This document shows, piece after piece, positions 33,964-34,418 of a stretch of DNA of 47,554 bases. Each line of letters starts with the position of its first letter. The stretch's first letter is position 1. The position numbers and the translations under genes were made by a program. Source of the DNA: Escherichia coli (lineage in GTDB: Bacteria; Pseudomonadota; Gammaproteobacteria; Enterobacterales; Enterobacteriaceae); the NCBI RefSeq assembly GCF_003334385.1, contig NZ_QOWN01000034.1. One strand, written 5' to 3'. Under the pieces are notes generated by a model. The model saw nothing but the letters and a program-made list of their open reading frames with translations. It was not told where the DNA came from and made no database searches.

Positions 33964-33994
33964 CTCGCTGATTAAAATACCAAAGGAAGGGAAT

Positions 33995-34258
33995 ATGATC
34001 GATCTGGAAAACCAGGAGCGGGAGATTATCAATTTAATGTTAAGCCAGCGTATTTCCTGGCTAGCCGCCGTGCGTATCAGGCATAAATTATCGCTTGCTG
34101 AAGTAAGTAAAATGTTAGGTATCTCGATTAATTCTCTAAAACAGATCGAAAAGACGGAACGGCTTAGCTCAAACATCAAAAGCAAAATGGCAGAAATTTA
34201 TGGTTGTCCACCAGAGTTGCTGATATGCCCTTCCTGGATGACGGCTGAACATAAATGA
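33995..34258 (+). CDS. Stand-alone XRE/Cro-C1-type helix-turn-helix protein, 87 aa (non-reference locus content)
   Basis: Strong SD (AAGGAAGG) 4 nt before the ATG. Translation carries a typical XRE HTH core (LSLAEVSKMLGISINSLKQIEKTE) and C-terminal helix (MAEIYGCPPELL). It occupies the place where K-12 has yjjJ. Confidence 0.5.
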   Translation: MIDLENQEREIINLMLSQRISWLAAVRIRHKLSLAEVSKMLGISINSLKQIEKTERLSSNIKSKMAEIYGCPPELLICPSWMTAEHK

Positions 34259-34355
34259 ATAGATTCGTGAATAGATACTTGAATGGATTTTATTTTCTAT
34301 CCATATGAAAAATAATAGTAAATCTATAAATCAGTTGCTATTGATGAATAGATAC

Positions 34356-34387
34356 TAAAAAGCCGGAGCAGTCTCCTGCTCCGGCTT
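34356..34387 (-). terminator. deo operon rho-independent terminator
   Basis: AGCCGGAGCAG-GAGA-CTGCTCCGGCTTTTT on the minus strand, ~30 bp downstream of the deoD stop. Confidence 0.75.
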
Positions 34388-34418
34388 AACACGACGTTCG
34401 CCTTTCAGCGAAACACAA

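Follow-up and report, generated by a model that had tools for sequence, protein, structure and literature searches.

An 87-residue XRE-type regulator gene as the major allele, and hipH as the minority allele, of a cassette site between lplA and deoD in Escherichia coli

The window analysed here is a stretch of 47,554 nucleotides from an Escherichia coli genome (contig NZ_QOWN01000034.1, RefSeq assembly GCF_003334385.1). Between its convergent genes lplA and deoD lies a 455-bp spacer (33964-34418) in which a single open reading frame (ORF) has gene-like marks, a plus-strand frame with an ATG start that encodes a stand-alone helix-turn-helix (HTH) protein of 87 amino acids (Table 1). In K-12 the same site holds yjjJ (hipH), the gene for a toxin kinase of the HipA family (Ser/Thr) with an N-terminal HTH. 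The HTH gene is almost certainly genuine and an allelic alternative to hipH, and the HTH form predominates at a cassette site with two alleles, of which the K-12 state is the minority one. Our best explanation of the locus as a whole, which stands at about even chances, is that the gene represents an orphan antitoxin-derived XRE alternative to hipH whose product occupies the adjoining array of repeats; only the conclusions at the gene level are firm.

The spacer between lplA and deoD is 1,498 bp long in the K-12 comparison strain (DSM 498) and holds the 1,332-bp yjjJ, which is encoded on the opposite strand and directly adjoins the stop codon of lplA, giving the order lplA, yjjJ, deoD. In blastn and pairwise alignments, the homology between the window and K-12 breaks immediately 3' of the lplA stop codon and is back from about 34250, at a CAT triplet complementary to the K-12 yjjJ start codon. 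The swapped segment measures about 1330 bp in K-12 and about 286 bp here. The final two codons of the 87-aa ORF and its stop codon fall within the sequence common to K-12. The initial annotation had described a 455-bp interval with one credible ORF behind a strong Shine-Dalgarno sequence, from which the kinase gene was missing and in whose slot stood a stand-alone XRE-type HTH gene. These observations were borne out, and yjjJ does lie between the two flanking genes in K-12, where the interval is not 455 bp.

Two origins had been put forward for the ORF, a deletion derivative of yjjJ that retained the DNA-binding domain alone and a distinct orphan antitoxin-like regulator. The identical chromosomal site and the presence of an HTH in both proteins would fit the former, but the HTH gene is on the strand opposite to yjjJ, blastn with 7-base words gave zero matches on both strands, and BLASTP of the 87-aa protein against YjjJ also gave zero matches, so that similarity to yjjJ is absent at both the DNA and the protein level. 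In hhalign, the N-terminal domain of YjjJ could be aligned over just 20 generic HTH columns, at a probability of 25%. The HTH classes are also unlike, being XRE in the 87-aa protein and winged-helix/MarR-like in YjjJ, where a HipA_C kinase domain (1e-20) comes next, which the 87-aa protein lacks. Furthermore, a genuine truncation looks different: in E. coli WB61 (L086 1449-1640), a yjjJ cut to its N-terminal HTH has kept the orientation of yjjJ and carries a pseudogene flag. Descent from yjjJ is thus refuted by the alignments and retains a negligible probability, while the second origin stands at the level of ancestry only.

Among 5,426 complete E. coli genomes, 3,905 contain the HTH cassette at an identity of at least 90% and 4,058 the whole 455-bp interval, while 1,348 contain the yjjJ allele (K-12 and sequence type ST131 included). 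To say that yjjJ had been replaced, as the initial annotation did, takes K-12 as the norm, which does not fit an HTH allele found in about 72-75% of the complete genomes and a yjjJ allele found in about 25%. Each allele occupies a single place per genome, and yjjJ is absent anywhere in the HTH-allele genomes of this set. The HTH allele is carried by Nissle 1917 and by O157:H7, O26, O103, and O111 strains. All 59 full-length matches among 60 listed matches spread over E. coli are annotated as coding sequences, in a table that does not hold pseudogene flags. Some matches were filed under E. coli plasmids, but the records are 0.4-4.9 Mb in size and represent chromosomal sequence, and they were rejected as plasmid copies. 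The flanks gave no clear signal of balancing selection, with an identity of 92% in the first 100 bp beside lplA and 96-100% elsewhere. Insertion sequences were seen at the locus in two rare variants: IS1 and IS200 lie between yjjJ and deoD in E. coli XJ5.2 (L087 1069-2357), and the HTH gene is split by IS1 in TBU0218_10-1CC (hit H44).

A survey of 80 species of Enterobacteriaceae, anchored on LplA, placed the two alleles in a wider context. The usual state is an empty spacer of 43-105 bp that contains terminators or hairpins resembling repetitive extragenic palindromic (REP) elements. The yjjJ gene is present at the site, at 60-95% identity, in E. albertii and in one each of Citrobacter, Kosakonia, Pseudocitrobacter, Leclercia, and Silvania, and both alleles were found in genera other than Escherichia. 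Other genera carry fimbrial operons, REP-associated transposases, and other genes at this position, and the convergent lplA/deoD spacer is an insertion hot spot across the Enterobacteriaceae. Across L003-L082, the inserted genes include chaperone-usher fimbrial operons, single fimbrial subunits, and REP-associated tyrosine transposase-like genes, as well as genes for a lipoprotein, a membrane protein, and a 406-aa secreted protein (examples are L052 2206-7729, L060 7018-12603, L080, L030, L026, L056, and L070). The empty site of Escherichia whittamii (L003 7018-7093) is of a different kind: "ATTGATGAAT" is fused to the deoD terminator and half of the last repeat is kept, which indicates the deletion of an HTH-type allele rather than an ancestral empty state.

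The HTH gene is already annotated in RefSeq (WP_000566155.1, "helix-turn-helix domain-containing protein"), is uncharacterised, and belongs to a very common family; a literature search on the gene, its locus tags, the protein accession, the dimorphism, and the repeat motif found nothing relevant. In agreement with its earlier assignment to the Cro/C1-type HTH domains, the protein matches Pfam HTH_3 (PF01381) at E=1.2e-6, with residues 23-76 covering model positions 1-55 of 55, and its further Pfam matches, HTH_19 and HTH_31, are to HTH domains only. The AlphaFold2 model, for which nine relatives were aligned, has a mean predicted local distance difference test score (pLDDT) of 87 and a predicted template modelling score (pTM) of 0.77, and contains helices at residues 4-18, 22-29, 34-41, 45-54, 59-69, 73-76, and 80-86. 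Foldseek matched the model to CylR2, the SinR N-domain, P22 c2, 434 Cro, DdrO, and C proteins of restriction-modification systems at a root-mean-square deviation of 1.4-2.1 Å, with 53-60 residues aligned, identities of 17-30%, and E-values of just ~0.02-0.1, in keeping with a five-helix fold of the lambda-repressor type. Two helices of the model lie outside the XRE core, an additional one at the N-terminus (residues 4-18) and a short one at the C-terminus. The former, together with a conserved "CPxWM" tail at the C-terminal end, is peculiar to the small 87-aa family and sets it apart from the small XRE repressors that are its best structural matches. Sequence-specific DNA binding is predicted for a protein of this class.

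Intact orthologues of 86-87 aa are located right after lplA, in conserved orientation, in five lineages. The syntenic orthologues are 86% identical in a divergent Escherichia (L004), 54% in Superficieibacter (L015), 51% in an uncultured Enterobacteriaceae (L022), and 44% in one further lineage (L083). A scan of metagenomes recovered the E. coli alleles and the UBA3516 lineage only, and no new HTH lineages. The ratio of nonsynonymous to synonymous substitution rates (dN/dS) is 0.15-0.32 between genera, 0.11-0.26 among the E. coli alleles, and 0.6 on the L004 branch, which indicates that the gene is under purifying selection. An 87-aa mirror ORF on the minus strand (33922-34185) was rejected, as it is not conserved outside Escherichia. 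The HTH gene is probably co-transcribed with lplA, since the gap between the lplA stop codon and its own start codon is 31 bp, the terminator scan found no terminator-like site in this gap, and the ribosome-binding site is strong. A 13-nt inverted repeat of 92% complementarity (33984-33996, AGGAAGGGAATAT; 34223-34235, ATATGCCCTTCCT) brings the Shine-Dalgarno sequence and ATG of the HTH gene into pairing with a stretch close to the 3' end of the ORF, and could mask the ribosome-binding site in the mRNA.

Very few relatives of the 87-aa protein were found in a search of 1.84 billion representative proteins. The full-length relatives outside the syntenic family are 95-133 aa long, share 27-45% identity with it, and have an extra 40-55 residues at the N-terminus. 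In all four contexts with an annotated toxin, located on two metagenomic contigs, a Leclercia plasmid, and an enterobacterial phage, the relative (118-133 aa) is encoded directly 3' of a RelE/ParE (PF05016) toxin gene, as in the HigA-type, toxin-first systems. These relatives belong to the PHROG family phrog_7241. The HTH domain and the preceding helix are homologous to those of its HigA-type members P0081, P0091, P0095, and P0097 (27-45% identity), with which the motifs "YGC" and "SxLAAxR" are shared, and the match to phrog_7241 (E=8e-11) covers profile positions 54-121 of 122 only, leaving positions 1-53 unmatched. By these comparisons, the 87-aa protein is equivalent to the C-terminal, DNA-binding portion of the HigA-type antitoxins, and the N-terminal extension of about 50 residues, which is presumed to neutralise the toxin, has either been lost or was never present. 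Unlike these phage- or plasmid-borne systems, the 87-aa gene resides in the chromosome, in conserved synteny across genera, and no RelE/ParE gene lies upstream of it; there is no toxin gene adjacent on either side, where lplA lies upstream and the repeats, a terminator, and deoD lie downstream. Homology to an antitoxin in a protein that lacks both the extension and the toxin partner suggests that the protein is likely to be an orphan, antitoxin-derived transcription factor. No repeats were found near the distant HigA-like operons, and the array linked to the 87-aa gene is a property of the locus rather than of the protein.

The features of a working antitoxin are thus present in the DNA-binding homology of the family and missing with regard to the adjacent toxin and the N-terminal extension. 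That the protein nevertheless still acts as the antitoxin of a persisting toxin, encoded either by the small ORF at 34255-34308 or elsewhere in the genome, for example by a RelE/ParE or HipA homologue, is very unlikely. The small ORF (MNRFVNRYLNGFYFLSI) is a plus-strand frame of 17 codons that runs through the repeats and begins in an ATGA overlap with the HTH stop codon, an arrangement typical of translational coupling, and the frame is also open in K-12 and in several other genera; the relatives of the protein being antitoxins would fit as well. However, the frame is only 7-8 codons long in two lineages (L009 and L015), its "codons" are the 12-bp repeat in the DNA, and it would be promoterless in the yjjJ alleles, in addition to the missing extension and toxin gene. 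The ORF was treated as spurious, and probably arises from the 12-bp periodicity. HipB, the XRE antitoxin and repressor of hipBA, and the 87-aa protein are of similar size (88 and 87 aa), share the XRE fold, and are, by analogy, small HTH proteins at HipA-family loci, but the profile matches are weak (E 0.045-0.07) and at the generic XRE level, and no hipA-family kinase gene is adjacent to the 87-aa gene. The operators of hipBA are inverted repeats, whereas the array at the 87-aa locus consists of direct repeats.

Both alleles adjoin one and the same module of 102 bp, in which three tandem repeats are followed by a probable weak promoter and by one more, distal repeat. In the window, the tandem repeats read TGAATAGAT (34256-34264), TGAATAGAT (34268-34276), and TGAATGGAT (34280-34288), and are separated from the fourth, which lies 65 bp from repeat 3, by a 56-bp AT-rich stretch that contains a conserved TGAAA box. 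The position of the two genes relative to the module differs, in that hipH lies downstream of the module promoter, with the array 2 nt from the yjjJ start codon in K-12, whereas the 87-aa gene has its 3' end against the module, with the first repeat overlapping its TGA stop codon. The module is present in all yjjJ loci and in four of the five HTH lineages, occurs in a decaying form beside yjjJ remnants, and was found in none of the empty sites. Its length is exactly 102 nt in seven loci, and across these loci from different genera the repeat cores are on average 92% identical (100% for the middle repeat), compared with 48% for the spacer. When the window is compared with the HTH allele of UBA3516, 33 of 36 repeat-core positions agree and the spacer is 51% identical, at a saturated synonymous divergence of the gene (dS ~2). 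The E. coli HTH alleles (L093, L004, and the window) have two or three proximal repeats, which differ by clean 12-bp deletions, and the third repeat is TGAATGGAT in some and TGAATAGAT in others. An RNA element was considered and rejected: Rfam gave sub-threshold matches only for 33900-34450, and RNAalifold on nine modules returned zero pairs.

The putative promoter of the module is directed leftward, with a -35 TTTTCA (34311-34306) and a -10 TCCATT (34287-34282) that are separated by an 18-nt spacer, and the -10 lies inside repeat 3. In K-12, the deoD-yjjJ spacer was identified as a site for RpoD holoenzyme by genomic SELEX (systematic evolution of ligands by exponential enrichment), with the prediction TTTTCA-18-TCTATT (PMC3946193). 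This prediction places the -35 on the TGAAA box and the -10 within repeat 3, and every module keeps the TGAAA box at the same spacing. It is thus probable that a leftward sigma-70 promoter has been inherited from the hipH regulatory region, and it may be active in the HTH allele. Since the predicted -10 is located within repeat 3, a protein bound to the repeats would occlude both the promoter and the leader.

The repeat array is quite probably the operator of the N-terminal winged helix of HipH itself, which would then be autoregulatory, because the motif covaries with the recognition helix across distant homologues. A motif scan of viral contigs identified tandem TGAATAGAT beside full-length HipH homologues of just 35% identity. 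In a scan begun independently from the HipH protein, homologues of 35-39% identity with the recognition helix SQPT[ILV]SR (L187, L188, L192, L194, and L205) were preceded by two to three tandem ATCTATTCA, 15-25 nt before the start codon, while the homologues in L195-L200, with the helix [NT]R[MPT]TL[SA]R, had two copies of a different motif, TTCGTAACnTAATT or ACGTAACACTATT. The recognition helix of the enterobacterial HipH, SQATFSRL, is invariant across genera. In addition, Reg-Seq has reported an unidentified repressor acting on the yjjJ promoter (PMC7567609). The control of HipH is unknown according to Gerdes et al. 2021, and one published result speaks against the assignment, in that tagged YjjJ in K-12 showed no DNA binding by ChIP-exo, chromatin immunoprecipitation with exonuclease treatment (PMC8464067).

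In the viral contigs L195-L200, which represent a second HipH subfamily ([NT]R[MPT]TL[SA]RLV), the two copies are located about 20 and 130 nt upstream of the start codon, and these proximal and distal copies echo the layout of TGAATAGAT. No HipH-like or 87-aa-like protein was found nearby in 85 of the 89 viral contigs with tandem TGAATAGAT, and on this ground the occurrences in these 85 contigs were judged to be unrelated. Tandem arrays of 12-bp TGAATAGATnnn with two to seven copies are present in many unrelated phage contigs (L098-L186, for example L101 2389-2433, L113, L114, L124, and L102), often immediately 5' of a ribosome-binding site or start codon and away from any protein resembling HipH or the 87-aa protein.

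In the HTH allele, the 87-aa protein would take over the occupancy of the array and thereby hold down the leftover leftward promoter, which, if unchecked, would produce antisense transcripts across the HTH gene into the 3' end of lplA. The protein is the simplest candidate binder, since yjjJ is absent, no stand-alone paralogue of the HipH N-domain that could act in trans was found (the search gave YjjJ fragments only), and the array has nonetheless stayed conserved. Among XRE proteins, binding to tandem direct repeats is known from SinR, which is one of the structural matches of the model. As read from the sequence, binding of the TGAATAGAT array and restraint of the promoter by the 87-aa protein is a tentative proposal that falls somewhat short of an even chance, and several observations weigh against it. 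The recognition helix of the 87-aa XRE protein is SINSLKQ in E. coli and TPDALKR or TPESLAR in other lineages, and thus varies among lineages that keep the same repeat, unlike the invariant helix of HipH. In L083, the HTH gene is intact and a single degenerate repeat is left. The gene is a pseudogene in two of six sampled divergent E. coli HTH alleles, and several HTH alleles in metagenomes are disrupted, with the repeats still perfect. A simple scan flagged no consensus promoter in the module, and to regulate a promoter that lies downstream of its own gene and points back at it would be an unusual design.

The variable helix, the gene without an array in L083, and the rather frequent pseudogenes would all be consistent with an orphan regulator that has its targets elsewhere or none at all, and that may be slowly decaying. 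Under this alternative, which is about as probable as the proposed binding, the array is kept for other reasons, and could represent part of the promoter and leader of an antisense RNA opposing lplA, or a site for a host factor such as H-NS or MarA. The position of the predicted -10 inside repeat 3 in K-12 fits such a role, and an H-NS site has been reported in the deoD-yjjJ spacer (PMC3946193). Moreover, MarA acts at the yjjJ promoter according to Reg-Seq (PMC7567609), and the pair yjjJ-lplA has been catalogued among the convergent excludons of K-12 (PMC12288877). On the other hand, a site for a host factor or a promoter fails to explain why four phased 9-mers stay 92% identical amid a drifting spacer, the module has no conserved RNA structure, and a paralogue of the HipH N-domain is missing. 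Should the 87-aa protein turn out to bind the array, the locus would clearly exemplify the capture of another toxin's operator by an orphan antitoxin domain; otherwise, it would be an ordinary accessory-gene polymorphism at a variable site of a known kind between convergent genes.

A more far-reaching interpretation is that HipH can be exchanged for the 87-aa XRE protein, and vice versa, as the "driver" of a single conserved operator-promoter module, in a long-lived polymorphism of a toxin kinase versus a repressor. This is improbable, although it would have notable implications if true. An unrelated antitoxin-derived HTH would have evolved to recognise the HipH operator, and the XRE allele would silence the module, silence or immunise against an incoming hipH, and determine how much antisense transcription enters lplA.

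These results suggest that the reference strain is misleading at this locus, as hipH/yjjJ has been studied only in K-12 and is missing from about three quarters of the complete E. coli genomes, and the HTH-allele genomes hold an unstudied small regulator instead of hipH. The status of hipH as a minority allele, a specific candidate for the HipH operator, and the persistence of this putative operator beside an unrelated HTH are new. The operator candidate, with three tandem TGAATAGAT and one distal copy, is directly testable.

Table 1. Features of the lplA–deoD interval in the window
Feature	Position	Strand	Evidence
lplA (lipoate-protein ligase)	32947..33963	+	ORF list and RefSeq annotation of the identical locus
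Allele-specific cassette without K-12 counterpart	33964..34249		blastn and pairwise alignments
Shine-Dalgarno sequence AGGAAGGG, 3 nt 5' of the ATG	33984..33991	+	Read from the sequence
87-aa stand-alone XRE/Cro-C1 HTH gene	33995..34258	+	Pfam, AlphaFold2, Foldseek, orthologues, dN/dS, phrog_7241
Three tandem repeats in 12-bp phase	34256..34288	+	Alignment with K-12; conservation across genera
Probable sigma-70 promoter, leftward	34282..34311	-	K-12 SELEX prediction and conserved TGAAA box
Distal fourth repeat TGAATAGAT, adjoining the deoD terminator	34345..34353	+	Kept in both allele types and several genera
deoD intrinsic terminator, perfect 12-bp stem and minus-strand T-run	34360..34387	-	Terminator scan and inverted repeat
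deoD (purine-nucleoside phosphorylase), right flank	34419..35138	-	ORF list and RefSeq

The stem of the deoD terminator has no T-run on the plus strand. Beyond deoD, the spacer to deoB (35139-35217) is 79 bp long in the window versus 56 bp in K-12, and the added sequence resembles a GC-rich palindrome of the REP type.

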